From Candidatus Eiseniibacteriota bacterium (GTDB lineage: Bacteria; Eisenbacteria; RBG-16-71-46; JABDJR01), in contig CAVXKA010000003.1 in the NCBI GenBank assembly GCA_963762255.1, forward strand, positions 96,001 to 160,000: DNA of 64,000 nucleotides, read 5' to 3'. This document shows positions 47,153-60,275 of the stretch, in pieces (within the stretch, counting starts at the first letter, position 1; each line of letters begins with the position of its first letter). Under the pieces are notes generated by a model. The model made no database searches. It was not told where the DNA came from and worked only from the letters and a program-made list of their open reading frames with translations. A program made the position numbers and the translations under genes.

Positions 47153-47510
47153 GTCAGTGGTCCTCGCTGTTCCGTGTCACTCGTGCGGGCGCGGCGTAGC
47201 CGGATCGCCCCGCGAACGACGAAGCGTCTCTGAGCCGCGGCGGGAGCGACGCGGCGCCGTCGTACTGTTTCTGGGCGGCTCGACAACTAGGCGGTAGGTC
47301 GGTGTCGTTTACCCGGGGAAAGTGCGCAGCGAAGCGGGGACCCGCCGCGGCGAAGGAGCGAGCGAAGAACGCTCCTGCGGAGCGTTCGCGCGAGCGCGCC
47401 CGAGGAGTGCGCGGGGCGAGACGACGAGAGCCGCGCCCGCGAGCGCCACGATCCGCGAGCGCATAGAAGTACAGGCAGGCAAACCAGTGCGTGTTAACCG
47501 CAAACAGCAG

Positions 47511-47532
47511 CGAGTCCAGCCGGCTGGACTCG
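47511..47532. repeat. Perfect 22-bp palindrome CGAGTCCAGCCGGCTGGACTCG
   Basis: Self-reverse-complementary; intergenic, next to palindrome copy 1. Confidence 0.85.
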
Positions 47533-47543
47533 AATGGCGACTG

Positions 47544-47563
47544 ATGCTCACCCGGGTGAGCAT
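47544..47563. repeat. 20-bp palindrome, copy 1 (perfect)
   Basis: ATGCTCACCCGGGTGAGCAT, 9 bp past the stop codon of the 47573 gene. Confidence 0.95.
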
Positions 47564-47572
47564 GGCTGCGCA

Positions 47573-50140
47573 TCACCGCGGCAACACCACGATCTTGCGC
47601 GACGCATGTCCGGCCTCGGTATCCAGCCGCAGGAAGTACACACCCGCCGGCACCCGTCTCCCGCGCTCGTCCATCAGATCCCAGGTCATCGTGTGGGCCC
47701 CGCCGACCTGCGGTTCCGCATACAGGAGCGCAATGTGACGCCCCTGCACGTCGGCTACGCGCAGCACCGCAAGACCCGGCTCCGGAGCGAACCAGTCTAT
47801 GGCCACCGGTCCGGCCGCGGGCATGGGAGCGACGCCGAGCGAAGGGCCCCCGGCCTTCGCGGCAGGGTAGGCGTGCCCGTCCCACCGCGCGATGAACGCG
47901 GATGGGTGATTCCCCGCGTAGTCGAAGGTCCCACCCAGGTACAGGGAGCCCTGCCATTCCGCGATAGCCGTGACTCCAACCCAGCGCATCGACACCGTCC
48001 GTACGTCTCCGCCCAATCCCAACCATCGCGTTCCGTCCCACAGAGCGACATGGCGGACCGAGTCTGGAGCGTCCGGCCAGAGCAACTCGCCCCCCACCAC
48101 CAGCCTCCCATCGTAGATGCCCAGCTTGTAGACATCGGAACGGTCCGTCAGCCCCAGGGATTGCCAGTTCAGCGCATCCCATGCGACCAGAGCGCCTGCC
48201 GTTTCTCCCCCCGCTGTTTCGAAGTGAGGGCCCGCCGCGTATAGCCTTCCGTTCAGCACGGCGATATCGTTCACCCGGATGCGGCTCCAATTCACGGTCA
48301 AGCCCTGATCGATGGACAACCAGTCCCAACCGTCCCAGATGGCGAGGCTGTTGACCCCTCGATACCCGGCAAAGGTGAAATAGCCGGAGACGATCAGAGC
48401 CGGCCCGACCGCCTTCATGGCAGTGGCCGACGAGTAGCTGCCGAGAAGACCCCGGCCGAGCGGAGTCCATGTCACCCCGTCCCAGGCGGCGATGCCGTAG
48501 GCCGAAATGCCCCCGGCGGACCGGAACGATCCTCCGGCTATGAGTTGCCCCTGGTACTCCACCAGCGCGTACACAGCTCCGTCCATGCCGCCGCCGAACG
48601 GCTCCCAGCTACTTCCGTCCCATGCGGCGATGTGATTCGCCTCAATCCCCCCGATGTGCTGGAAGGAACCACCGACGATCCAGGTGCCGTTGAAGGGCAT
48701 GAGGACTTGTATCGGACCGTCCATGTCGTCCTCGAGAAGGGTCCACACCGTTCCATCCCAGCGCGCCAGCCCGGTGATCCGGGTCCATTGCCCGGCGGGT
48801 CGGAAGGTGCCGGCGACAAGCAGGCCCGAGTCCGTGGGGAATATCCCGCTGGGCGAGTACACCAGTTCCGGCCCGCGCTCTCCCAGCGGGGCCCAGTCCG
48901 TTCCGCTCCACTTCAGCACTCGACCGGGCTGGGATTCGACCGGACTCAACGTGGGTCCCGGCAACGAGAAGCTGCCGCCGATCACCAACTCGCCGCGGTA
49001 GAGGGCAACCGCTTCGATCTTCCGGTTGAAGGCGGTGCAGGTCTGCTCGTTGCCGGGGCAGTTCCACCGCGCACCGTCCCATATAGCAGCACCCGGGGCG
49101 AAGGTCTCCATCTCCGGCACGAACGAAGCGCCAGCCACAGCGAGCCTCCCATCGAAGGGGACGAGATGACCCACCCAGTAGTCGGGAACCAGGCGCTCGT
49201 CCGCAGACCCCAACGCGCTCCAGGTCTCCCCGCTCCACGTAGCAACGTTCCTGACCGCGGCACCCCCCGCCTGCGCGAAGTTACCCGCGGCCACCAAGTG
49301 CCCCTGGTATGCCGCGAGATCGCGCACCTCGCCGTCGGTGCCGCCGGCCGGCGCCGACCAGTGCTCGTCGTCCCAACGCGCGATGTTGCCGAGCGTATCG
49401 TCGGGCGCTAGACGAAACCGCCCACCCATCCAGAGGTCCCCGTCGCGCCATTCAAGAGCGCGAATGGACGGAGAGAACTCGTAGAGCGTGTCGGGGGTGA
49501 GATCGCTCCAGCCGGTCCCGTCCCAGAGCAGCACGAACGGCGTATCCGGATCCGCCCCGTAGAACGGGAAGGGGTCGAATCGCTGGCCGCAGACGAAAAG
49601 GCTGTCCCCCACCGAGACGATGTCGTTCACCGTGGCGTTCCCCGACAGCAGATCGGCGCCCAACGGTTCCCACTCCGCGCCGGTCCATTGGTGGAGTGCG
49701 CTGGGCAGCCTCGGGTCCAGCAGGCGCGGGTTGGATTCGGGCCTTCCGCGCGCGGCGAGCAGGCGACCCTGATGCGCTGACATCAGTGTCGGAAACCCGG
49801 AGACAGGCAATCCCTGCGGCCAGGCCTCGTACCCCGCTCCGTCCCAGACGGCCAGCCCGGGTGCGGCCACGCCGTTGATGAAACCGAACGCCCCCGCCAC
49901 AAGAAGCTTCCCGTCGAATTCGAGCAGGGAAGAGATCGTCGGGCCGGATCCGCTGCCGGAGGTGGGCAACGCGGCAGGAGGGTAGAACCCGTCCCACCAG
50001 AGTTCACCGCCGCCGAGCGTGGTGTCGGGCGACCCGGGGAGCGCAGCCGCGTTGGACGGCAGCAAGAGCGCAGCGAGAAGCGCCGCGACGCCGGCCGCAA
50101 TGCTCACCCGGGTGAGCATTCGCCGCGCCTCGGTCCGCAT
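47573..50140 (-). CDS. Secreted WDG-repeat beta-propeller protein with C-terminal FlgD Ig-like domain
   Basis: Signal peptide; many repeats like V.AL....G.L..GG.F..AGG...IA.WDG..W..LG; C-terminal DVQGR..WDLMDERGRRVPAGVYFLRL..SRKIVV. Alternative ATG at 50119. Confidence 0.8.
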   Translation of the reverse strand: MRTEARRMLTRVSIAAGVAALLAALLLPSNAAALPGSPDTTLGGGELWWDGFYPPAALPTSGSGSGPTISSLLEFDGKLLVAGAFGFINGVAAPGLAVWDGAGYEAWPQGLPVSGFPTLMSAHQGRLLAARGRPESNPRLLDPRLPSALHQWTGAEWEPLGADLLSGNATVNDIVSVGDSLFVCGQRFDPFPFYGADPDTPFVLLWDGTGWSDLTPDTLYEFSPSIRALEWRDGDLWMGGRFRLAPDDTLGNIARWDDEHWSAPAGGTDGEVRDLAAYQGHLVAAGNFAQAGGAAVRNVATWSGETWSALGSADERLVPDYWVGHLVPFDGRLAVAGASFVPEMETFAPGAAIWDGARWNCPGNEQTCTAFNRKIEAVALYRGELVIGGSFSLPGPTLSPVESQPGRVLKWSGTDWAPLGERGPELVYSPSGIFPTDSGLLVAGTFRPAGQWTRITGLARWDGTVWTLLEDDMDGPIQVLMPFNGTWIVGGSFQHIGGIEANHIAAWDGSSWEPFGGGMDGAVYALVEYQGQLIAGGSFRSAGGISAYGIAAWDGVTWTPLGRGLLGSYSSATAMKAVGPALIVSGYFTFAGYRGVNSLAIWDGWDWLSIDQGLTVNWSRIRVNDIAVLNGRLYAAGPHFETAGGETAGALVAWDALNWQSLGLTDRSDVYKLGIYDGRLVVGGELLWPDAPDSVRHVALWDGTRWLGLGGDVRTVSMRWVGVTAIAEWQGSLYLGGTFDYAGNHPSAFIARWDGHAYPAAKAGGPSLGVAPMPAAGPVAIDWFAPEPGLAVLRVADVQGRHIALLYAEPQVGGAHTMTWDLMDERGRRVPAGVYFLRLDTEAGHASRKIVVLPR
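50099..50120. repeat. Palindrome copy 2 (perfect, 22 bp)
   Basis: AATGCTCACCCGGGTGAGCATT; encodes MLTRVSI at the N-terminus of the 47573 gene. Confidence 0.95.
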
Positions 50141-50144
50141 GCTC

Positions 50145-51812
50145 CTACCCCTCCACCATCGGCATCCGTATCCCCTTCGCCTTCGCGACCGCGATCGCCT
50201 CGTCGTACCCCGCGTCGGCGTGGCGCACCACACCGGTGCCGGGATCGTTGGTGAGCACACGCTCGAGCCGTTGCGCGGCGTCCTCGGTGCCGTCCGCCAC
50301 GATGACCATCCCCGCATGCAGCGACAATCCGATCCCCACACCGCCGCCGTGATGGAAGGAAACCCAGGTCGCACCGGACGCGGTATTGAGCAACGCGTTC
50401 AGGATCGGCCAGTCCGCGACCGCGTCCGAACCGTCCTTCATCGCTTCCGTCTCGCGATAGGGACTCGCCACCGAACCGGTATCCAGATGATCGCGCCCGA
50501 TCGCGATCGGCGCTTTCACGCGCCCGCTCTTGACGAGATCGTTGAAGAGGAGCCCCGCCTTGGCGCGGTCGCCGTAGCCGAGCCAGCAGATCCGCGCGGG
50601 CAACCCCTGAAAGTGCACGTGCTTCGTCGCGAGCGGCAACCATCGCGCGAGCACCTTGTCCTTCGGAAACGCGGCCAGGAGCGCCTCGTCGGTGGCGCGG
50701 ATGTCCTCGGGATCGCCCGACAACGCCACCCAGCGGAACGGGCCTTTGCCCTCGCAGAAGAGCGGCCGGATGAACGCCGGCACGAAGCCAGGATAGTCGA
50801 ACGCGTTCGCCACACCCGCCTTCTCGGCCTGCCCGCGCAGGTTGTTGCCGTAGTCGAAGACGGTGGCGCCGCGCTTCTGGAACTCGAGCATCGCCCGGCA
50901 GTGCACCGCCATCGACTCCATCGAGCGCTTGACGTAGGTCTTGGGATCGCTCGCGCGCAGCCGCAGCGCCTGCTCGTACGACATGCCGTGCGGCACGTAG
51001 CCGTTCAATTCATCGTGCGCCGAGGTCTGGTCGGTCACGTAGTCGGCCGCGAACCCGCGCAGGACGAGTTCCGGCAGGATGATCGCCGCGTTCCCGTGTA
51101 CCGCCACCGAGTAGGGCCGCTTCTCCTTGCGCGCGGCTTCGACGCGCGCGATCGCCTCGTTGAGCGTCTCCACCGCCTCCATGCAGTAGCCGGTGGCGAT
51201 GCGCCGATCGATGCGATCGCGATCCACCTCCACCGCAAGACATACGCCGCCGTTCATGGTGACGGAGAGCGGCTGCGCGCCGCCCATGCCCCCGAGACCC
51301 GCCGTCACCAGCACCTGCCCCGCCATGTCGCCACCCGCGCGCTGCCGCGCCGCCTCGGCGAAGGTCTCGAAGGTCCCCTGCACGATTCCCTGCGTGCCGA
51401 TATAGATCCACGACCCCGCGGTCATCTGCCCGTACATCATGAGGCCCTTCGCCTCGAGGTCGCGGAAGTGCTCCCACGTCGCCCACTTCCCCACCAGGTT
51501 CGAGTTGGCGATGAGCACGCGCGGCGCGCCGGCGTGCGTGCGGAAGACGGCGACCGGCTTGCCGCTCTGCACGAGCAGGGTCTCGTCGGCGGCCAGCGTC
51601 TTGAGGGTACGGACGATCGCGTCGAAGGCCGCCCAGCTTCGCGCGGCGCGACCGGTACCGCCGTAGACAACCAGATCGTCAGGACGCTCGGCCACGTCCG
51701 GATCGAGGTTGTTCATGAGCATGCGCATGGCCGCTTCCTGCGGCCAGCCCTTGCAGGTGATGGCGGCGCCGCGCGGGGCGCGGACGGTGCGAGCGGTGGC
51801 GGTCGAGGTCAT
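50145..51812 (-). CDS. hutU: Urocanate hydratase
   Basis: [63 protein letters not shown]. Confidence 0.97.
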
Positions 51813-53941
51813 GTCGGGTCTCCTTGTCGCGAAAGCTTGCGGGCGCGCCGGGGCTTGGCGGGCGCTGTCGCCGGCACCGCGGCCGGCGCCCGCAACTCCT
51901 CCGGCGCATGCGCCCCGCTATTCCACCACGAAGCGGCCGCCCGCGCCAGCGCCGCGCCGTCCTCCACCGAGGTCACCGGCAGCGGAAGCGCGTCGCGGAA
52001 GCGGCCGCCGTAGTTCTTGCTCAAGAGCCTCGTGTCGAGCACGGCGACGATGCCGCGGTCGGCGCGACGACGGATCAACCGCCCGAAGCCCTGCTTGAAG
52101 CGCAGCACCGCTTCGGGAAGGTAGAGGTCCGTGAACGGGTTGCCCCCTTCTGCCTCCAGCCGCTCCGCGCGCGCCTGATAGCGCGGTTCGGTGGGCACGC
52201 CGAACGGAAGGCGGGTCAGCACCAGCACCTCGAGATCGTCGCCGGGAAGGTCCACCCCTTCCCAGAAGCTTGCGGTGCCGAGCAAGAGCGCGCGCTCGGC
52301 GCGGCGGAACGCCGTGAGCACGTCGCTCGCGGTGCCGTGCTCGCCCTGCGCGAAGACCTCGTAGGCGGATCCGCCCACCAGCGCGCGCACCGCGTCGAGA
52401 TCGCGATACGACGTGAAGAGCGCCATCGTCTTGCGCGCCGGATCGTGCATGAGAGCGTCCAGCGTCTGTGCGGTGGCCTCGGCCCACCCCGGCTCGCGCG
52501 GATCGGGGCCTCGCCGCACTGCCAACGCCAGCGCCTGAGTCGTGAAATCGAAGGGCGAAGGATACGCGATGGCGGGAAGGGCGCCCTCGAAGCCGACCTC
52601 GCGCGAGAAGTAGTTGAAGTCCTTCCCGGCGGCGAGCGTGGCCGAAGTGAAGACGAGCCGCTCCGGCCCGTTCGCGAGCGCCGCCGCCACGCGCGGTCCT
52701 GCCTCGAGCGGCGACGCGTTCAGCGAGAACCCGTCCTCCGACCACTCCTTCCAGTGGACGCGCTCGCGATCCTGCGGATCGGGATGGAGGAGCACGTCCA
52801 TGTCCTTGCGCAGCGCGTCCACCTCCCCCTGGAAGCGGTCGATCTCGGCGAGGAACGCTCCCTCGCTTTCGCTCTCCACACCGTTGCCGTCCAGGTACGA
52901 AGCGAGCGCGCCGGCGTCCGCGGAAAGCGTGCCCAACGCGTGGAACACCGGCTCCGCATCGAGCGGGCAGAGCGCGGCCAACTCCTCGGGATCGCTATAG
53001 CGGCGGCGGTCGTCCCCGTTGCCGCGCGCGCCGTTCTTCTTGCCGAACCACTCGCGGGCGATGCGCTCGGCGGTCGAGAGCGAGCGGTGCACCGCCACGA
53101 GCCGCGACGCCCCCTCGCCGGAGCGCGCAACCTCGGGAAGGCCCCCACCGCCGCCGGGCGACGCGTCCACCAGCGACTGCAACCGCGACGGCCCCGCCGC
53201 GACCGTCAGGTGATCGATCGCCACCCGCACGAACGCGTGCGCCTCGTCCACGATCAACGCGGGGAACTCCGGGAGCACGTCTCCTTCGCCGAAGAGGTGC
53301 GTCGCGAGAAGCGCGTGGTTCACCACGAGGAGATCCGCAGTACCCGCGCGCGCGCGAGCCTGCTTGAAGAAGCAACCCGACTGCGGCGAGCACGCGGAGC
53401 CGCGACAGAAGCGCGGTTCGCTGGCCGCGTGGAGGGCCAGGAACTTGAGATCCCGCGCGCCGCGCTCGCCGCAGGTGCCGAAGTCGCCGGTCTCGGTGCG
53501 CTCCACCCAGGGGCGGATGCGCTCCAGGAGGCGCTGCGTGCCCTCGGTGGTCGCGTCGCGGACGGCCGCTTCGTAGCGGCGTCGGCAGAGATAGTTCGCG
53601 CGCCCCTTCAGGAGAAAGACGCGCAGGTCCGGACCGACCGCGAGCCTGAGCCGCGGCGCCTCCAGGTCGAGGAGTTGGTTCTGCAGCGCCTTGGTGTGGG
53701 TGGAGACCACGACCGGGCCGTGTCCTTCCGCCGCCCAGAGTGCCGCGGGGAGTCCATAGGCGAGCGACTTACCGATGCCGGTGGGCGCCTCCACCGCAAG
53801 TCGTCCGCCGTCCTCGAAGAGGCGCGCGATCTCAAGCGCGAGCTCCCGCTGGAACGGGCGGTCCTCATACGGGGCAAGCGCCGCGGCGAGGACGCCGTCG
53901 GGACCGAGGAGATCCGGCACCTGCTCCGCGTTGTAGCTCAT
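51809..53941 (-). CDS. dinG: DinG/YoaA-family Fe-S ATP-dependent helicase
   Basis: [21 protein letters not shown], Cys cluster [44 protein letters not shown]. Confidence 0.9.
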
Positions 53942-53974
53942 CGTTCCGCCCGTCCCGCGCACAACCGCGTCATC

Positions 53975-56134
<2,160 letters not shown>

Positions 56135-56141
56135 TCAATCC

Positions 56142-57191
56142 ATGAGCCGTCATCACCTCGCCCCGTCCGCTCCCCGGTCCCTTGCGGCGGCCGTGCTCCT
56201 GATCGCCCTCATGGTCGCCGGTTCGGCCTCGGCGGCGGTGGCGGCCTCCCTGAGCGGCGGCTACCGCCCCGACTCCACCTGCACCGGCGATCGCGCGCTC
56301 CATCCCAGCGAGCCCTCGGCCAAGCAGGCGATCGCCTCCTCCGACGTCATCTTTGTGGGCAATCCGTTCGCCGTGCACGATCCGGTGCCGCTCTCGGTTC
56401 AGCTCCCCGAAGACGAGATGGTGATCGACATCGGTTTCCAGGTGCTGCGCGCCTGGAAGGGCGGGGTAGCGGACACGGTCTGGGTACGCACGATGCGTAA
56501 CCCGCAATCGGGCGGATGGGCCATCGGAACCGAGTTCACCTACCTCGTGTACGCGCGCCGTTACGGGGACGTGATCTGGACCGACGCGTGCAGCCGATCG
56601 CGGCTCGCGCGTAATTCCGAGACCGACCTCTACTACCTCGGCAAGCCGACCTTCGACGACGGCTCGGGCGGAGTGCCGGAAGTCACGATCGAGACGCTCC
56701 TCCAGACGGTGCGGGACAACACAGGAACCCGACGCCTCCTGGCCATGCAAGCCGTGTCGCACATCACGGAGGAAGCCGCGCGTGTCCTTCCCGTGCTGAC
56801 GGAGGTCTACCGCACCGGGCGCGGCTCCGAGCGCTCGGAGGCGCTCAACGCGATCGGCAACATGGGCGCGCAGGGTCGCGGCGGGGTGCCGCTCTTGCTG
56901 GAAGCCTCGGCGGATACCACCGCGTACATCCGTCAGGCTGCAGCCGGCGCGCTGGGGCAGATCGGCGATGACTCCCCCGAGGTCGTGGACGCGCTGGTGC
57001 GGCTGACCGCGGATCCCGAGACCGTAGTGCGGGGAATGGCGGCGCGCGCGCTGGGGCGGATCGGCGTCGGCGGCGAGAAGGTGATCGCCGCGCTCAAGCC
57101 GCTCCTCGATGACCGCGCCCGTTTCTGCCGCGAGTCGGCACAGGCCGCACTTGACTCGATCGCCGAGAAGGCGCAGAAGCAGTCGCGCTAG
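56142..57191 (+). CDS. Secreted protein: TIMP-like N-domain plus HEAT repeats
   Basis: Signal peptide; SDVIFVG..FQVLRAWKG..VRT..YLVYA..TDACSRS; HEAT repeats D..AYIRQAAAGALGQIG and DPETVVRGMAARALGRIG; GGAGG RBS. Confidence 0.65.
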   Translation: MSRHHLAPSAPRSLAAAVLLIALMVAGSASAAVAASLSGGYRPDSTCTGDRALHPSEPSAKQAIASSDVIFVGNPFAVHDPVPLSVQLPEDEMVIDIGFQVLRAWKGGVADTVWVRTMRNPQSGGWAIGTEFTYLVYARRYGDVIWTDACSRSRLARNSETDLYYLGKPTFDDGSGGVPEVTIETLLQTVRDNTGTRRLLAMQAVSHITEEAARVLPVLTEVYRTGRGSERSEALNAIGNMGAQGRGGVPLLLEASADTTAYIRQAAAGALGQIGDDSPEVVDALVRLTADPETVVRGMAARALGRIGVGGEKVIAALKPLLDDRARFCRESAQAALDSIAEKAQKQSR

Positions 57192-57289
57192 TCGCGCGGC
57201 GGGTTGCGCCGCTTCGCGTCTCGCCCGTCGCCCTCGCCGACGGGTCCCCCGCTTCGCGGCCCGTCGGACTGCGGTCGACGGGCGTGCCT

Positions 57290-58588
57290 CTACGCGGCGC
57301 GATGATCACCCGGGTGGGCATCAATCCCGGAACCGCGCCGCAGCGGCCATCCCTCGCTGCCGCCGGCCCGCGCGTGAATCATCCCGTGGCACGAGCTGCA
57401 CAGCGTGATCAGGTTGTCAGGATGATTGGCGCCACCGTTCGTGCGCGGCACGACGTGATGCACGTCCAGGAAACGCGCGCTGCCGCATCCCGCGGTGCGA
57501 CAGCGGTGACCGTCTCGCGCCAGAACCTCACGCCTCACGGACGGCGGGATCGTTGCGTGGTTCTTCTCCCCCTTCCGATCCACGCGCGCGTCGCAGAGCG
57601 CGGTTTCGAGCGTCTTCGGCGAGACGGGCAATGGGCCGCGCCCGGTGGCGATCTCCGCGCGGCCACACGTCTCACACTGGCGGATCACGATCTGATAGCG
57701 CGGCTCCGATCGGGCTTCACGTCCACGGGTTTCGCGGACAGTTGCGGGTTGGTCTTCACCGCCAGATCCGGTTTCGACAGCGGACTTGCTCATCCGGGTG
57801 AGCATTTCCCATGCAGCGAGGAACAACTCTTCTCGCGCTCCGTGCGCCCCGGTCTTGCGTGCCTTCTCGAGGATCGCTTCGTACCGCGCGTACTGCTCGG
57901 GTGAAAGCGTGAACGACACCGTGACCGGGACTTCGACCGCCGGGTTCACGACCGCGCCCACAGCTCCGTCCGCCGCGTCATAGGTCCCGGCCGCCAACCC
58001 ATTCGCCGGGCCATCCACGCCATTGGCCACCAGCAGCTCCCCCTGCCCCGGCGCGCGCCGCCGGACCCTCGCCGCGCCCTGCGTCACCGCTATCCGCCGC
58101 TCCAACTCCCGCCGGCCCGTGCTCTGCGCCTGTTCGACCCAGAACCGTTCCGTCTCCGGCGTGGCCACCTTCACGACCTCCCGGGCCTTCGTCCACGGGA
58201 CCGCTCCCGACGCGACCGACTCCTTCAACGCCGGCAGCGCATCGAATGCCCGGCACAGTCGCAGGAAGTACGCGGTGCGCGCCCGCGAGAACCCGAGCCG
58301 CTCATGGGCATAGTGATAGATGCTCGAGCAGCCCAGCTCCAGGTAGAGCTTCCGGCTCAGGATCTCCCCGAACCAGATCACCGCGTTCTTGCGCGCGGCG
58401 TCCAGATCGCTCAGCGCGGCAACCAGACGCGCTTCGACCTCGGCTGCGGGGAGCGGTCGGCCAGACGCAGATTCCGCGGAGTCGGCGAGGGGCGAAAGGT
58501 TCTGGACCCCGGTGCTCACCTCAGCGAGCAGGGTCTCAACAGCCGGAGCAGCGGCGTCAGCATGCAGTGCGACAGTGTCAGCGGACAT
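57290..58588 (-). CDS. HNH endonuclease with DUF222-like helical N-terminal domain
   Basis: LGCSSIYHYAHERLGFS...LPALKESVASGAVPWTKAR; CETC; C-terminal IPPSVRREVLARDGHRCRTAGC..DVHHVVP..GG..DNLITLCSSCH; GGAGG RBS. Confidence 0.9.
   Translation of the reverse strand: MSADTVALHADAAAPAVETLLAEVSTGVQNLSPLADSAESASGRPLPAAEVEARLVAALSDLDAARKNAVIWFGEILSRKLYLELGCSSIYHYAHERLGFSRARTAYFLRLCRAFDALPALKESVASGAVPWTKAREVVKVATPETERFWVEQAQSTGRRELERRIAVTQGAARVRRRAPGQGELLVANGVDGPANGLAAGTYDAADGAVGAVVNPAVEVPVTVSFTLSPEQYARYEAILEKARKTGAHGAREELFLAAWEMLTRMSKSAVETGSGGEDQPATVRETRGREARSEPRYQIVIRQCETCGRAEIATGRGPLPVSPKTLETALCDARVDRKGEKNHATIPPSVRREVLARDGHRCRTAGCGSARFLDVHHVVPRTNGGANHPDNLITLCSSCHGMIHARAGGSEGWPLRRGSGIDAHPGDHRAA
57302..57321. 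repeat. Palindrome copy 3 (2 mismatches)
   Basis: ATGATCACCCGGGTGGGCAT in the last codons of the HNH gene (DAHPGDH). Confidence 0.85.
57786..57805. repeat. Palindrome copy 4 (2 mismatches)
   Basis: TTGCTCATCCGGGTGAGCAT inside the HNH gene (MLTRMSK). Confidence 0.85.
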
Positions 58589-58641
58589 GACGGTCCCTCC
58601 GTGGACGGGTGGAAGGACGGGGGAAGTGGGCGGGCAAGGAC

Positions 58642-58670
58642 AATCTATCGCGACGGTAGAGATACGTCAA
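58642..58670 (-). promoter_or_regulatory. Sigma70-type promoter of the HNH gene
   Basis: Minus strand TTGACG-17 bp-TAGATT with an AT-rich UP-like tract (TTTTATTA). Confidence 0.7.
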
Positions 58671-58705
58671 TAATAAAATGACGACATCGACAACAAAATC
58701 TCACT

Positions 58706-58725
58706 ATGCTCACCCGGGTGATCAA
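58706..58725. repeat. Palindrome copy 5 (2 mismatches)
   Basis: ATGCTCACCCGGGTGATCAA, intergenic, upstream of the HNH promoter. Confidence 0.9.
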
Positions 58726-58757
58726 CAGTCGCTGAAGCGCCTGCGCCGATCGCGCAA

Positions 58758-60275
58758 CTAGAACGCCGCGTCGAGTCGCAGATGGATGCGTCCGTCGAGC
58801 GGGCTCTCTCCCTTGGCCACGCCGTACTCGATCCCGAGCAGGCCGAGCTTGCTCGCTTGCCGCACTCCCACGCCGGTCCCCAGAAGGAACGTGCGGAAGC
58901 TATCGCGCAGTTCCTGTCCGTGGCGAGGTGAGATGAGGGCGGCGTCGGCGAAGAGGTAGAGCGCGGACCCTCGGGCATCTGCGAGCCAACGCCATTCCGC
59001 CTGAACGAGCCAGGCCGCCGGCGTCAGGAACTGCTCCTCGCGGTAGCCGCGCAACGAGGACGCCCCGCCCACCGCGAAGAGGTCGTAGCGCGCGAGCGAA
59101 TCCTCCGGAGTGTCGAGGTACTCGAACGATCCGCGCAGGGCGAGAAGCCACTGCCGTCCCGCGCGGCGATACGCCTCGGCGCCCGCCGTCCAGCGCGTGC
59201 GGTCGATGCGCACCTCGAGCGAGTCCCGCGCCGCCGCGAAGCTCTTCTGGCCCCGCCGGCTCTCCAGGAAAACGCGCCCGCCCGCCGTGGGCACCAGCTG
59301 GGAATTCCGCCGGTCCCACTCCACGCCGAGGATATAGAAACCCTCGGTGACGGTGCCGACATCGGAGGCGGTTTCGACGGCCTGAGTTCCTCCCCGACCC
59401 ACCCGGAATCGCCACCCGCCCGACCGATCCAGGTTGGCCGCAACTTCCCATTTCGTATACGAATAGACGCCCTGGTTCACGTCATGGGTGAGGCTGCCCT
59501 GCACGCCGATCGGGATCAGCGGCAACCACGGCTCGTGATAGCTCAAGGCGAACCGGCTCAAGCCGTCGCCACGGTCCTCCCAACGCCCGGTGGCGCGGCG
59601 CGCGGTGCCGGCGATGTTGGCCAGATCGAGATCGACAAGTCCGGTGACCCGCGAGTCGCGGCCGCTCACTCCCAGCACACCGGCGAAGCGCGTGAAGGGC
59701 GGTTCGGTCACCGGCACTTCGAGAAGCACGTCGTCGGGCGTGCCGCCCGGGTTCAGCCTCACCTCTCCGACCGAGAGGAAGAGACCGGAGCGGGCGAGAG
59801 CTTCCGCGAGCGCGCGATCCTGTCGGCCGGTGTAGGGCTCGCCGATCCGCACGCCGGCGACGCGCAGCGCGGTGGCGGGGCGCGTCACCTTGCCGCCGGT
59901 GAGAAGCAGACCTGCCACGCGCGCCTTGGGACCTACATCCAGCGTGACGGTTCCCTCCAGCCGGCCATCGCGCAGGTCGAAGGAACCCGGCGAGGCCTCT
60001 GCGAAGGGGTACCCGATGTCGGAGAGCCACGCGAGCGCGCGGCGGAGCGCGGGGCCGATCGGCGCGTCGCTCACAGGCCGTCCTTCGAGATCGAGCGATC
60101 GCGCCCATGCGATGCTGTCGATGGGAGCGGTCGTGACCAGGCGAAGTCTCCCCCACCGCAGCGGCTCGTCCGCTTTCGCAGCGTCGGCGCCGGCGAACGC
60201 GCCCGCCGGCACGGACGCGAGCAGCATCGCGACGGCTAACCCCCGCCGCACCGCGCACGAAGCGCCCGCGCGCAT
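58758..60275 (-). CDS. Omp85 (BamA/TamA)-family outer membrane protein
   Basis: POTRA-like LSDIGYPFAE; DLANIAGTAR, YHEPWL, VGGASSLRGYREEQF (VRGY-like loop); C-terminal HLRLDAAF. Confidence 0.85.
   Translation of the reverse strand: MRAGASCAVRRGLAVAMLLASVPAGAFAGADAAKADEPLRWGRLRLVTTAPIDSIAWARSLDLEGRPVSDAPIGPALRRALAWLSDIGYPFAEASPGSFDLRDGRLEGTVTLDVGPKARVAGLLLTGGKVTRPATALRVAGVRIGEPYTGRQDRALAEALARSGLFLSVGEVRLNPGGTPDDVLLEVPVTEPPFTRFAGVLGVSGRDSRVTGLVDLDLANIAGTARRATGRWEDRGDGLSRFALSYHEPWLPLIPIGVQGSLTHDVNQGVYSYTKWEVAANLDRSGGWRFRVGRGGTQAVETASDVGTVTEGFYILGVEWDRRNSQLVPTAGGRVFLESRRGQKSFAAARDSLEVRIDRTRWTAGAEAYRRAGRQWLLALRGSFEYLDTPEDSLARYDLFAVGGASSLRGYREEQFLTPAAWLVQAEWRWLADARGSALYLFADAALISPRHGQELRDSFRTFLLGTGVGVRQASKLGLLGIEYGVAKGESPLDGRIHLRLDAAF

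Follow-up and report, generated by a model that had tools for sequence, protein, structure and literature searches.

We analysed a stretch of 64,000 nucleotides (nt) of bacterial DNA (the window; G000:C3:96001–160000, forward strand, where G000 is the genome under study), which carries a minus-strand gene for an HNH nuclease of 432 amino acids (aa; 57290–58588) together with five copies of a 20-base-pair (bp) palindrome, ATGCTCACCCGGGTGAGCAT. The genes around the palindrome sites encode a secreted beta-propeller protein, a urocanase, a DinG-type helicase, an NAD-dependent DNA ligase, a HEAT-repeat protein, the HNH protein and an Omp85-family protein, and all are on the minus strand except that for the HEAT-repeat protein. 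G000 is 4.14 Mb in size with 67% G+C, was assembled into three contigs and is 93.6% complete. The organism is Gram-negative and Eisenbacteria-like, as judged from Omp85 and FlgD_ig tails among the window proteins, and the named relatives with homologous HNH genes are Candidatus Eisenbacteria and Krumholzibacteriia metagenome-assembled genomes, so the actinobacterial framing used in a preliminary description of this DNA was wrong. Our analysis points to a pairing, so far undescribed, of a DNA-cutting enzyme with its own repeated target.

A search of the window allowing up to 3 mismatches returned five matches to the 20-mer, two of them exact (starting at 47544 and 50100) and three with 2 mismatches each (57302, 57786 and 58706). 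Shuffling the window 100 times gave a mean of 0.00 matches, and no copy was found in the window upstream of 47544 at the same threshold. Copy 1 (47544–47563) is exact and intergenic, 10 nt past the stop codon of a minus-strand gene for an 855-aa secreted protein (47573–50140) that has a DUF5122 beta-propeller repeat and a weak FlgD_ig tail and forms the cargo of a strain-specific segment. It is flanked by a hairpin, CGAGTCCAGCCGGCTGGACTCG (47513–47534), with a 16-nt core that is present 7 times in the genome and recurs beside several palindrome copies; at several loci, including copy 1, this hairpin (GTCCAGCCGGCTGGAC) and the palindrome make up a composite repeat of ~55 nt. Copy 2 (50100–50119), likewise exact, overlaps the 5' end of the 855-aa gene, where it encodes MLTRVS, the head of the signal-peptide-like N-terminus, and it sits within a segment that the sister genome G001 lacks, 24 nt from that segment's right border. 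Copies 3, 4 and 5 have 2 mismatches each and belong to the HNH locus. Copy 3 (57302–57321) falls in the last codons of the HNH gene (..DAHPGDH..), a position kept in paralogues w, p2, p4 and p6; copy 4 (57786–57805) marks the junction between the conserved N-terminal part and the variable linker (..EMLTRMS..); and copy 5 (58706–58725) precedes the HNH start by 118 nt and is ~20 nt beyond the edge of the conserved repeat unit. There is also a degenerate relic of an N-terminal-tail palindrome (58512–58531), of which the half coding for ..VS.. is left and which is intact in p2, p3, p4 and p6.

The preliminary description had reported five copies at these positions with 0–2 mismatches and none in the first 47 kb, had placed three of them in or near the HNH gene, and had noted that three are translated in two different frames; all of this was borne out, with copies 3 and 4 inside the gene, copy 5 upstream of it, and copies 2, 3 and 4 read as MLTRVS, AHPGDH and MLTRMS, respectively. 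It had also described an extended inverted match of 27 bases shared by copies 1 and 5 (25 of 27 positions), which can be read directly from the two sites and which arises because the hairpin and the palindrome form a composite unit. At 50100–50140 the palindrome itself supplies the likely start codon and the charged signal-peptide head of the secreted protein and, by rough gene calls, it also falls within the first ~60 nt of other genes at C1:913992, C3:595591, C1:195194 and C2:548200, which suggests that the repeat has sometimes been co-opted as a gene start.

The HNH protein consists of a disordered N tail, a helix-turn-helix domain resembling that of ParB (residues ~45–178), two long helices (230–272), a variable linker, a zinc ribbon (~302–322) and a C-terminal HNH domain (~349–408) with invariant His, Asn and Cys. 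Residues H377, H378, N388, N392, H401, C363, C368, C397 and C400 were invariant in 20 aligned sequences. The protein matched Pfam HNH with an E of 2.7e-10, its HNH domain was structurally matched by VIA-align to McrA (Z 8.0) and to the HNH domain of IscB (Z 7.3), and sources annotate the family as McrA-like restriction nuclease. It had been called DUF222-like, a label that holds by way of its homologues, as Pfam DUF222 (PF02720) matched 7 of the 20 aligned homologues (best E 6.4e-7) and about 10 of 120 listed homologues carry PF02720, and does not hold for the window protein itself, which gave no match even at E ≤ 10. PADLOC returned matches at the level of the HNH domain only, plus two marginal matches of the N-terminal domain to a candidate family (E 0.004–0.009). 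When plasmids were searched by tblastn with a DUF222-positive homologue, only HNH-domain pieces were found, and 0 of 42 records covered 80% of the query. Two of these plasmid matches (H3 and H4, Bacillus velezensis / amyloliquefaciens) are proteins annotated as ‘ParB N-terminal domain-containing’ that match the zinc-ribbon/HNH part, a hint at other natural ParB-HNH fusions.

Seven HNH loci were found in G000, the window gene and six paralogues, and each is a repeat unit of ~1.5 kb. Homology between the units runs from ~-95 to ~+1385 relative to the start codon (~90 nt past the stop) and takes in a promoter-like site, the leader and a 3' repeat that we call module B. The promoter-like site (TTGACG-17-TAGATT; 58642–58670, minus strand) is kept, with the 5' leader, in five paralogues. 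Module B (57205–57300; ~95 nt, with two CCCGTCG..CGACGGG hairpins) directly follows the HNH stop codon. Module B, which contains a repeated GCGAAGCGG, is present in 24 copies in G000, of which 5 lie just after stop codons of HNH paralogues and one is inverted upstream of paralogue p6, and it is dispersed in G001 as well. Five HNH paralogues with 63–81% protein identity carry the palindrome at three shared places, namely codons ~20–26 of the N tail, the end of the conserved N-terminal part and the last codons. The N-tail palindrome, degenerate in the window's gene, stands out among the paralogues as an island of identity amid indels; at the mid-gene and 3'-end palindromes the paralogues agree in the left half and part ways from the centre of the palindrome onward. 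Two more divergent paralogues (~55% identity) have different mid-gene palindromes, TGTGTACCCGGGTACACA and GATTTCACCCGGGTAAAATC. HNH units make up 0.25% of the genome and hold 10 of 66 palindrome sites, where 0.17 would be expected, an enrichment of about 60-fold in and around HNH paralogues, for which the preliminary description had suggested a test.

In the whole of G000 the 20-mer was found 8 times exactly and 48 times with up to 2 mismatches, and its 12-base core, TCACCCGGGTGA, has 70 exact copies, compared with at most 3 copies each (median 0) of 29 other palindromes of the same half-site composition. The consensus is nTG[C/A]TCACCCGGGTGA[G/T]CAn, and no T-run follows the palindrome in the logo of the 70 copies. 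The five copies had been reported from within 11 kb; the motif is not local to this part of the window and forms a genome-wide family. Among 66 sites with up to 2 mismatches to an 18-mer, 46 were outside called genes in a genome that is 89% coding, and the intergenic sites were found between convergent genes (~13) more often than between divergent genes (~3). Some copies lie 15–130 nt upstream of gene starts and many just after stop codons. Two copies in a 12-base register were found at four loci, three of which are exact tandem duplications of the core (C1:779991, C2:788386 and C2:1314271) and one an imperfect duplication (C3:647050), and many sites combine with other repeat modules in mosaic fashion. 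Sites were also clustered, as 25 of 57 collapsed sites had a neighbour within 5 kb, compared with 7.2 on average and 20 at most when sites were placed at random 2000 times. The degenerate 18-mer was counted 56 times in G000, 3 times in G001, which is a sister genome of the same genus, and 0 times in 39 further relatives; with 2 of the 41 genomes compared having it, the motif is confined to the genus of G000. The palindrome distribution is the behaviour of a REP-like repeat (REP, repetitive extragenic palindrome) and not of a conserved operator, since it is lineage-specific, mostly intergenic, clustered and found in tandem and mosaic forms.

HNH family matches were found in 23 of the 41 genomes, with multiple copies in many. 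Y1_Tnp (PF01797), the transposase domain of REP-associated tyrosine transposases (RAYTs), was not found in a six-frame search of G000, and the same search was positive in 6 of 14 control genomes. Rfam gave no match at the palindromes or at module B, and nothing within 57000–59000 at E ≤ 1. Among other repeats in G000, a perfect 16-nt palindrome, CGCCGAGGCCTCGGCG, is present in 15 copies.

A palindrome within the reading frame of the HNH gene shows a constraint at the level of the DNA. We took 80 further HNH loci from named assemblies; tests anchored on the zinc ribbon used 68 of these, 12 of the 80 having been dropped where the zinc-ribbon pattern was not found. A perfect palindrome of at least 12 nt lies 200–15 nt before the zinc ribbon in 35 of the 68 loci, compared with 1–11 of 61–68 for windows outside the gene. 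At 36 of 52 such sites the centre of the palindrome follows the first base of a codon (phase 1) and the sequence codes for [P/T/S]-R-[G/V/D/L], and the in-frame palindrome is mostly 11–16 residues before CxxC. There were 14 distinct mid-gene 14-mers, and the residue pairs flanking the centre are those forced by complementarity (P-G, T-V, S-D, S-L, A-A, C-H, F-N and V-T). In the window's clade the equivalent site (..MLTRMS..) is at the other end of the linker. Because the codon phase is fixed and the residue pairs follow base complementarity, the constraint is on the DNA and not on the protein, as had been proposed from three translated copies alone. An in-frame palindrome with residue pairs dictated by base pairing is a rare and clear DNA-level signal inside a reading frame, and it extends across the whole family.

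Homologous HNH loci in other genomes have palindromes of their own at matching places, which is what one of the checks suggested in the preliminary description had asked about. In G003, G004, G006, G020, G021 and G038, HNH loci have locus-specific palindromes in the upstream, mid-gene and 3'-end regions (examples from outside G000 are GTTTCCCCGGGGAAAC, TCTGGACCCGGGTCCACA, AGATACCCGGGTATCT, ATGCACACCCGGGTGTGCAT, TGTCTCCCCGGGGAGACA and TGTTTCCGCGGAAACA), and two of these families are dispersed in their own genome. TTTCCCCGGGGAAA was counted 13 times in G004 (the two HNH loci there account for 5 of these copies), 7 times in G003 and 0–1 times in three other genomes; TGGACCCGGGTCCA was counted 25 times in G004 and 0–1 times in four other genomes. 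For tests of a palindrome shared between positions, loci with windows running off the contig were dropped, and the stated n is the remainder. Of 75 loci, 10 had the same 16-nt near-palindrome both upstream and mid-gene; the counts were 6 of 78 for the mid-gene and 3' windows and 5 of 73 for the upstream and 3' windows. Any two of the three positions shared one in 13 of the 80 loci, whereas five control window pairs gave 0 of 63–69 each. The mid-gene 14-mer of a locus was found again elsewhere in that locus in 9 of 32 loci, compared with 4 of 315 tests with the 14-mers of other clades. This cross-genome co-variation points to each HNH clade carrying its own palindrome.

In a clade of metagenome-assembled genomes labelled Fibrobacteraceae we observed a 14-nt palindrome, TTTACACGTGTAAA, inside the zinc-ribbon coding sequence (..VYTCK..) and in a different codon phase (L084, L086, L088, L091, L092, L094, L095, L098, L101, L103, L104, L113 and L121). 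It may be the cognate site of that clade or just conserved coding sequence.

The N-terminal domain was compared with known structures, with results that point moderately to a resemblance to the helix-turn-helix domain of ParB, Noc and KorB. In the AlphaFold model of the HNH protein, the mean pLDDT (predicted local distance difference test) was 70; it was above 90 for the N-terminal domain (45–178), and residues 1–40 were disordered. Foldseek listed Noc and ParB DNA-binding domains for the N-terminal domain with probabilities of 0.98–1.0, including 6y93_B (TMt 0.64, probability 0.98) and 7ng0 (root-mean-square deviation (rmsd) 2.8 over 107 columns). Independently of Foldseek, VIA-align matched ParB-parS (6s6h_B; Z 6.7, rmsd 4.3, 104 aligned), Spo0J (1vz0_A; Z 6.2) and KorB (8qa8_A, Z 5.7; 1r71_A, Z 5.6). 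Pfam HTH_ParB (PF17762) matched 7 of 20 HNH homologues weakly (best E 0.0025), and in a six-frame scan of G000 this profile found the true ParB and the N-terminal domain of paralogue p5 only, the latter with an E of 0.0023 and 19.9 bits, below the cut-off of 22.6. The ParB/Srx N-terminal CTP-binding domain was not detected by Pfam in the HNH protein. The Noc site is a 16-bp palindrome centred on CCCGGG, TATTTCCCGGGAAATA (as given in bioRxiv 10.1101/2022.02.28.481274), and is close in form to the HNH-associated palindromes. Two copies of residues 41–280 were predicted to form a homodimer with a score of 0.71, compared with 0.00 for the best control; proteins solved as pairs attained this mark in 20 of 30 cases, and those solved as single chains in 1 of 23. 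Runs agreed in at least 44% of contacts and partner pLDDT was at least 64. The predicted symmetric dimer supports putative binding of a palindrome.

Presence or absence of palindrome-associated DNA differs between G000 and G001. The HNH repeat unit with its flanks (57188–58757, borders approximate) is absent at the orthologous HEAT–Omp85 junction of G001, and so is the ~3-kb segment with copies 1 and 2 and the secreted-protein gene (47175–50143, approximate borders taken from BLAST segment ends) at its own place. In the latter case G001 has a 51-nt spacer that holds a different 20-nt palindrome, GATTCCACCCGGGTGGAATC, which has 4 copies in G001 and 0 in G000. This site (L131 2695–2714; G001:C174:4594–4613) is beside the urocanase stop codon, and the 16-nt core of its palindrome, TTCCACCCGGGTGGAA, is absent from G000 and present in G001 in 3 exact copies and a further copy with 1 mismatch. 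As all arm differences are compensated, the palindrome type turns over at a fixed site beside urocanase. Further DNA absent in G001 comprises a 1.43-kb RibD_C cassette on C2 of G000 with palindromes on both sides, a 1.7-kb methyltransferase segment on C1, a 1.1-kb EamA-transporter cassette on C1 with a palindrome at its border and a ~107-nt insert of palindrome plus module B at C2:884330. At C3:204482 the alignment with G001 stops ~59 nt from the palindrome, and at C2:736460 the palindrome is conserved in G001. In all, 7 of the 8 palindrome sites compared were at, or within ~120 nt of, a G000-specific segment or synteny break.

Contigs of four soil or rhizosphere metagenomes with relatives were also compared to the window. 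One soil-metagenome contig (1109 nt, depth ~6) joins position 57786 to 58707, that is, palindrome copy 4 to copy 5, with 920 nt removed; this deletion takes away the promoter and the N-terminal half of the HNH gene. Other metagenome joints (47566 to 58578, with 22 letters on the shorter side; 50119 to 47185, with 40 between) look like other mosaic-repeat loci and were not counted. Across the sequencing runs screened, no run contained more than 0.15 of the sampled words, and none of them was RNA.

Several further observations were made at or near palindromes and repeat modules. Between copy 5 and the Omp85 stop codon (58725–58758), 166 nt replace 32 nt in one soil-metagenome relative, another length polymorphism abutting a palindrome. 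A short repeat module (..GATCGCCCCGCGAACGACGAAG..CTCTGAGCCGCGGCG..; 47195–47250) is at the left border of the strain-specific 3-kb segment and recurs after paralogue p3 and beside the palindrome in metagenome contigs. A toxin-antitoxin island (G000:C1:1209000–1212100; L185) with two RelE-like genes, a PemK/MazF and a Fic/Doc has a palindrome in each gap between modules, and a second MazF is beside palindromes at C3:595.5–596.3 kb. Elsewhere in the window, two adjacent tRNA genes on the minus strand (1187–1348) were the sole Rfam matches at gathering score.

The reading that we favour, with a probability of roughly 55%, is that an HNH nuclease with a ParB-like domain and its cognate, clade-specific palindromes form a pair comparable to REP and RAYT. 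Association of palindrome and gene, cross-genome co-variation, DNA-level constraint, presence/absence polymorphisms, fold resemblance and the predicted dimer were all computed here; palindrome binding, cleavage and nuclease-driven spread are what we infer from them. According to this model, the 432-aa protein is a member of a multi-copy family distantly related to DUF222/13E12; its ParB/Noc/KorB-type helix-turn-helix domain would, as a symmetric dimer, read a clade-specific palindrome of 16–20 bp, and its C-terminal zinc-ribbon/HNH module would supply the nuclease activity. The cognate palindrome would be located in the 5' region of the gene, in frame at either the beginning or the end of the inter-domain linker and often at the 3' end as well, and the palindrome of the five-member clade would have spread to some 55 further sites, mostly intergenic, often clustered and often at the borders of accessory cassettes. 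The nuclease may nick or cut at its own palindromes, and host repair or palindrome-to-palindrome joining could then copy, delete or move the intervening DNA, the nuclease gene and its halves included, so that the pair would behave like a REP/RAYT system built on a different enzyme. The preliminary description had read the locus as an HNH-driven REP-like or homing element; the data favour the cognate link in that reading and do not support classical homing, and cutting and spreading are kept here as putative activities of the enzyme.

A number of results weigh against this interpretation. Foldseek gave no match at E ≤ 0.001, VIA-align itself warns that helical domains often reach Z 5.6–6.7 by chance, and a PDB sequence search with the family profile returned HNH relatives only. 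The hhalign comparison with the genome's own ParB was weak (E 0.17, probability 0.35%), yet it aligned the helix-turn-helix region. The 60-fold enrichment (10 of 66) is inflated by paralogy, because palindromes inherited with gene copies are not independent events, and 56 of the 66 palindromes are far from any HNH gene. Intergenic and genic assignments depend on a crude home-made gene caller (3158 genes, 89% coding). The strict two-position palindrome test was passed by only 13 of the 80 loci, and unrestricted shared k-mers (11–13-mers) between gene regions showed no excess over control windows; only palindrome-restricted tests discriminate. The association of 7 of 8 sites with indels has no formal control, uses BLAST segment ends as borders and leans on a G001 assembly that is 75% complete and in 360 contigs. 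At the orthologous HNH site G001 has a 67-nt spacer in which no palindrome was found, and the intergenic DNA there is too diverged to align. Finally, the palindrome-to-palindrome deletion is one low-depth contig from a relative with 87–95% identity, and it could have arisen through short-repeat slippage that needs no nuclease.

The main rival is a binding-only or regulatory role, in which a ParB/KorB/Noc-like protein uses the palindromes for autoregulation and perhaps for chromosome-wide marking or tethering, the dispersed copies have come about through recombination, slippage or an unrelated process, and the HNH domain targets, say, foreign DNA or stalled replication. We regard this as unlikely, although it accounts for the resemblance to ParB, Noc and KorB (KorB is a repressor and Noc binds dispersed chromosomal palindromes), for palindromes near the promoter or early in the coding sequence, for the 56 sites away from HNH genes and for the annotation as a McrA-like restriction nuclease. 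It is less easily squared with an HNH gene that is multi-copy (7 here, and far more in relatives) and, in the manner of selfish elements, differs in presence from one sister genome to another, with palindromes that are at cassette borders and between convergent genes rather than mainly at promoters, with the different palindrome that G001 has at the same site, or with the centre of copy 5, which is ~55 nt upstream of the -35 hexamer (~80–90 nt from the expected transcription start) and thus far for a repressor. We rejected the idea of an ordinary transcription-factor operator with its regulon, and give hardly any credence to it or to a restriction-modification or methylase site centred on CCCGGG. 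A perfect 18–20-bp palindrome with a CCCGGG centre and some copies 15–130 nt upstream of gene starts would suit such a site, which had been named as a possible refutation of the earlier reading, but it is judged unlikely because the motif is genus-specific (2 of 41 related genomes), is often between convergent genes and has tandem and mosaic forms. The neighbouring genes are moreover functionally unrelated, and of 2564 CCCGGG sites in G000 only ~60 carry the palindrome arms.

Two other explanations separate the palindrome from the nuclease. It seems improbable that the palindrome is a REP-like repeat in its own right, disseminated by host processes or by some other enzyme, and has merely accumulated in the dispensable DNA of a selfish HNH gene. 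In-gene copies do occur only in poorly conserved segments (N tail, linker and C tail), other repeats have no link to HNH genes (CGCCGAGGCCTCGGCG, the 16-nt hairpin and module B, with 15, 7 and 24 copies, respectively), and palindromes gather around toxin-antitoxin and other accessory genes too; such hitch-hiking would not explain why the mid-gene palindrome keeps its place and codon phase in distant members while its sequence changes, why a clade's palindrome is repeated within its own locus but not in other loci, or why dispersed families track the matching HNH paralogue across genomes, and no RAYT was found in G000 as an alternative source. A role at the RNA level, with the palindromes acting as transcript hairpins that stabilise or terminate 3' ends and, within the HNH mRNA, cause pausing or processing by which an N-terminal DNA-binding product is set apart from the full nuclease, appears quite improbable. 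It would agree with the many copies just after stop codons or between convergent genes and with a mid-gene site exactly between the two functional halves of the protein, but the 70-copy logo lacks a T-run and Rfam gave no match, palindromes that are perfect through the centre and tandems in a 12-base register are not needed by a hairpin, and neither cassette borders nor the N-terminal fold would be explained.

Building on the favoured pairing of nuclease and palindrome, we put forward, tentatively and as a possibility for which the odds are rather unfavourable, that DUF222/13E12-like HNH proteins are the enzymes of an unrecognised class of mobile or genome-rearranging elements, in which a ParB-type helix-turn-helix dimer would read a clade-specific palindrome similar to parS and the Noc-binding sites (NBS). 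The in-frame palindrome would then be kept between the recognition half and the nuclease half and at the gene ends, and cuts at palindromes would make it possible for a segment flanked by any of them to be excised, inverted, deleted or captured at a further palindrome. Candidates for such segments are the gene, either of its halves and cassettes of toxin-antitoxin pairs, transporters and secreted proteins, and the 12-base core duplications, including the imperfect one, might have been left by staggered cuts on either side of the core. Should this also apply in actinobacteria, it would offer a mechanism for the inversions that have been reported to go with 13E12 in Mycobacterium. HNH genes of the DUF222/13E12 type are very common and multi-copy and their function is unexplained; the analysis gives a concrete, testable model for them, with a putative ParB-type DNA-reading domain, a predicted cognate site that can be read from each gene and a proposed role of these sites as borders of variable DNA. 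The family would also be a natural set of predicted long-site nucleases (16–20 bp) with a specificity that appears to change from clade to clade.

The locus shares features with several known systems and differs from each of them. Free-standing HNH homing genes are similar in that they too encode an HNH nuclease, have a promoter of their own, are present in some close genomes and absent from others, and have a long recognition sequence, which is predicted here. Unlike them, the empty allele shows no palindrome, a target-like sequence is intact inside and beside the HNH gene rather than disrupted by it, and dozens of solo sites persist; because no palindrome was found at the empty G001 site, in intergenic DNA too diverged to align, classical homing is not supported. 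Rickettsia palindromic elements, which are ~100–150 nt long and tolerated in frame inside protein-coding genes, provide a parallel for palindromic repeats within reading frames, and to our knowledge they have no cognate enzyme. The unit described here differs in being 18–20 nt long, in its conserved position in one gene family and in co-varying with that family.

ParB-parS, Noc-NBS and KorB-operator systems are alike in the resemblance of the N-terminal helix-turn-helix and in 16-bp palindromes bound by dimers, a homodimer being predicted here. They are unlike it in that the HNH protein has no CTP-binding domain detectable by Pfam, is a fusion with a zinc ribbon and HNH domain and is encoded by a selfish multi-copy gene, and the sequence relationship is only marginal. 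The actinobacterial DUF222/13E12 family (REP13E12) has the same architecture, helical at the N-terminus and HNH at the C-terminus, and forms multi-copy dispersed units of ~1.4–1.5 kb with no known function; the DUF222 matches of 7 of the 20 homologues connect it to the present family, from which it differs in that the window protein falls below the DUF222 threshold and comes from a different phylum. DUF222/13E12 genes have been treated as a class of repeats or mobile elements (PMC10589994, PMC13157036), and in M. tuberculosis the 13E12 family is at inversion breakpoints and was reported to be SOS-induced (PMC13157036). Literature searches, mostly at the level of titles and abstracts, brought up no report that DUF222/13E12 HNH proteins have cognate palindromes or a ParB-like domain.

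The closest likeness is to REP/REPIN sequences and their RAYTs, which are extragenic, lineage-specific repeats with a repeat-flanked enzyme gene and a pairing of enzyme clades with repeats (PMC3116915, PMC3337134). Both systems consist of short palindromes that are mostly extragenic, lineage-specific and present in tens to hundreds of copies, sometimes in clusters or doublets, and in both the repeats flank the gene of their cognate enzyme and vary with the clade of that enzyme (here the HNH clade). RAYTs are typically single-copy (bioRxiv 10.1101/119735), unlike the HNH gene with its seven copies in G000. The palindromes also differ, being perfect, loopless, located inside the enzyme's own frame and present in ~60–70 copies. 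No Y1/HUH transposase was found in G000 and the candidate enzyme is a helix-turn-helix protein fused to an HNH nuclease; because a Y1 transposase defines REP/RAYT systems, the HNH/palindrome pair falls outside them. If the favoured reading is correct, the pair would add to REP/RAYT a second, independent example of a family of short palindromic repeats tied to its own enzyme.

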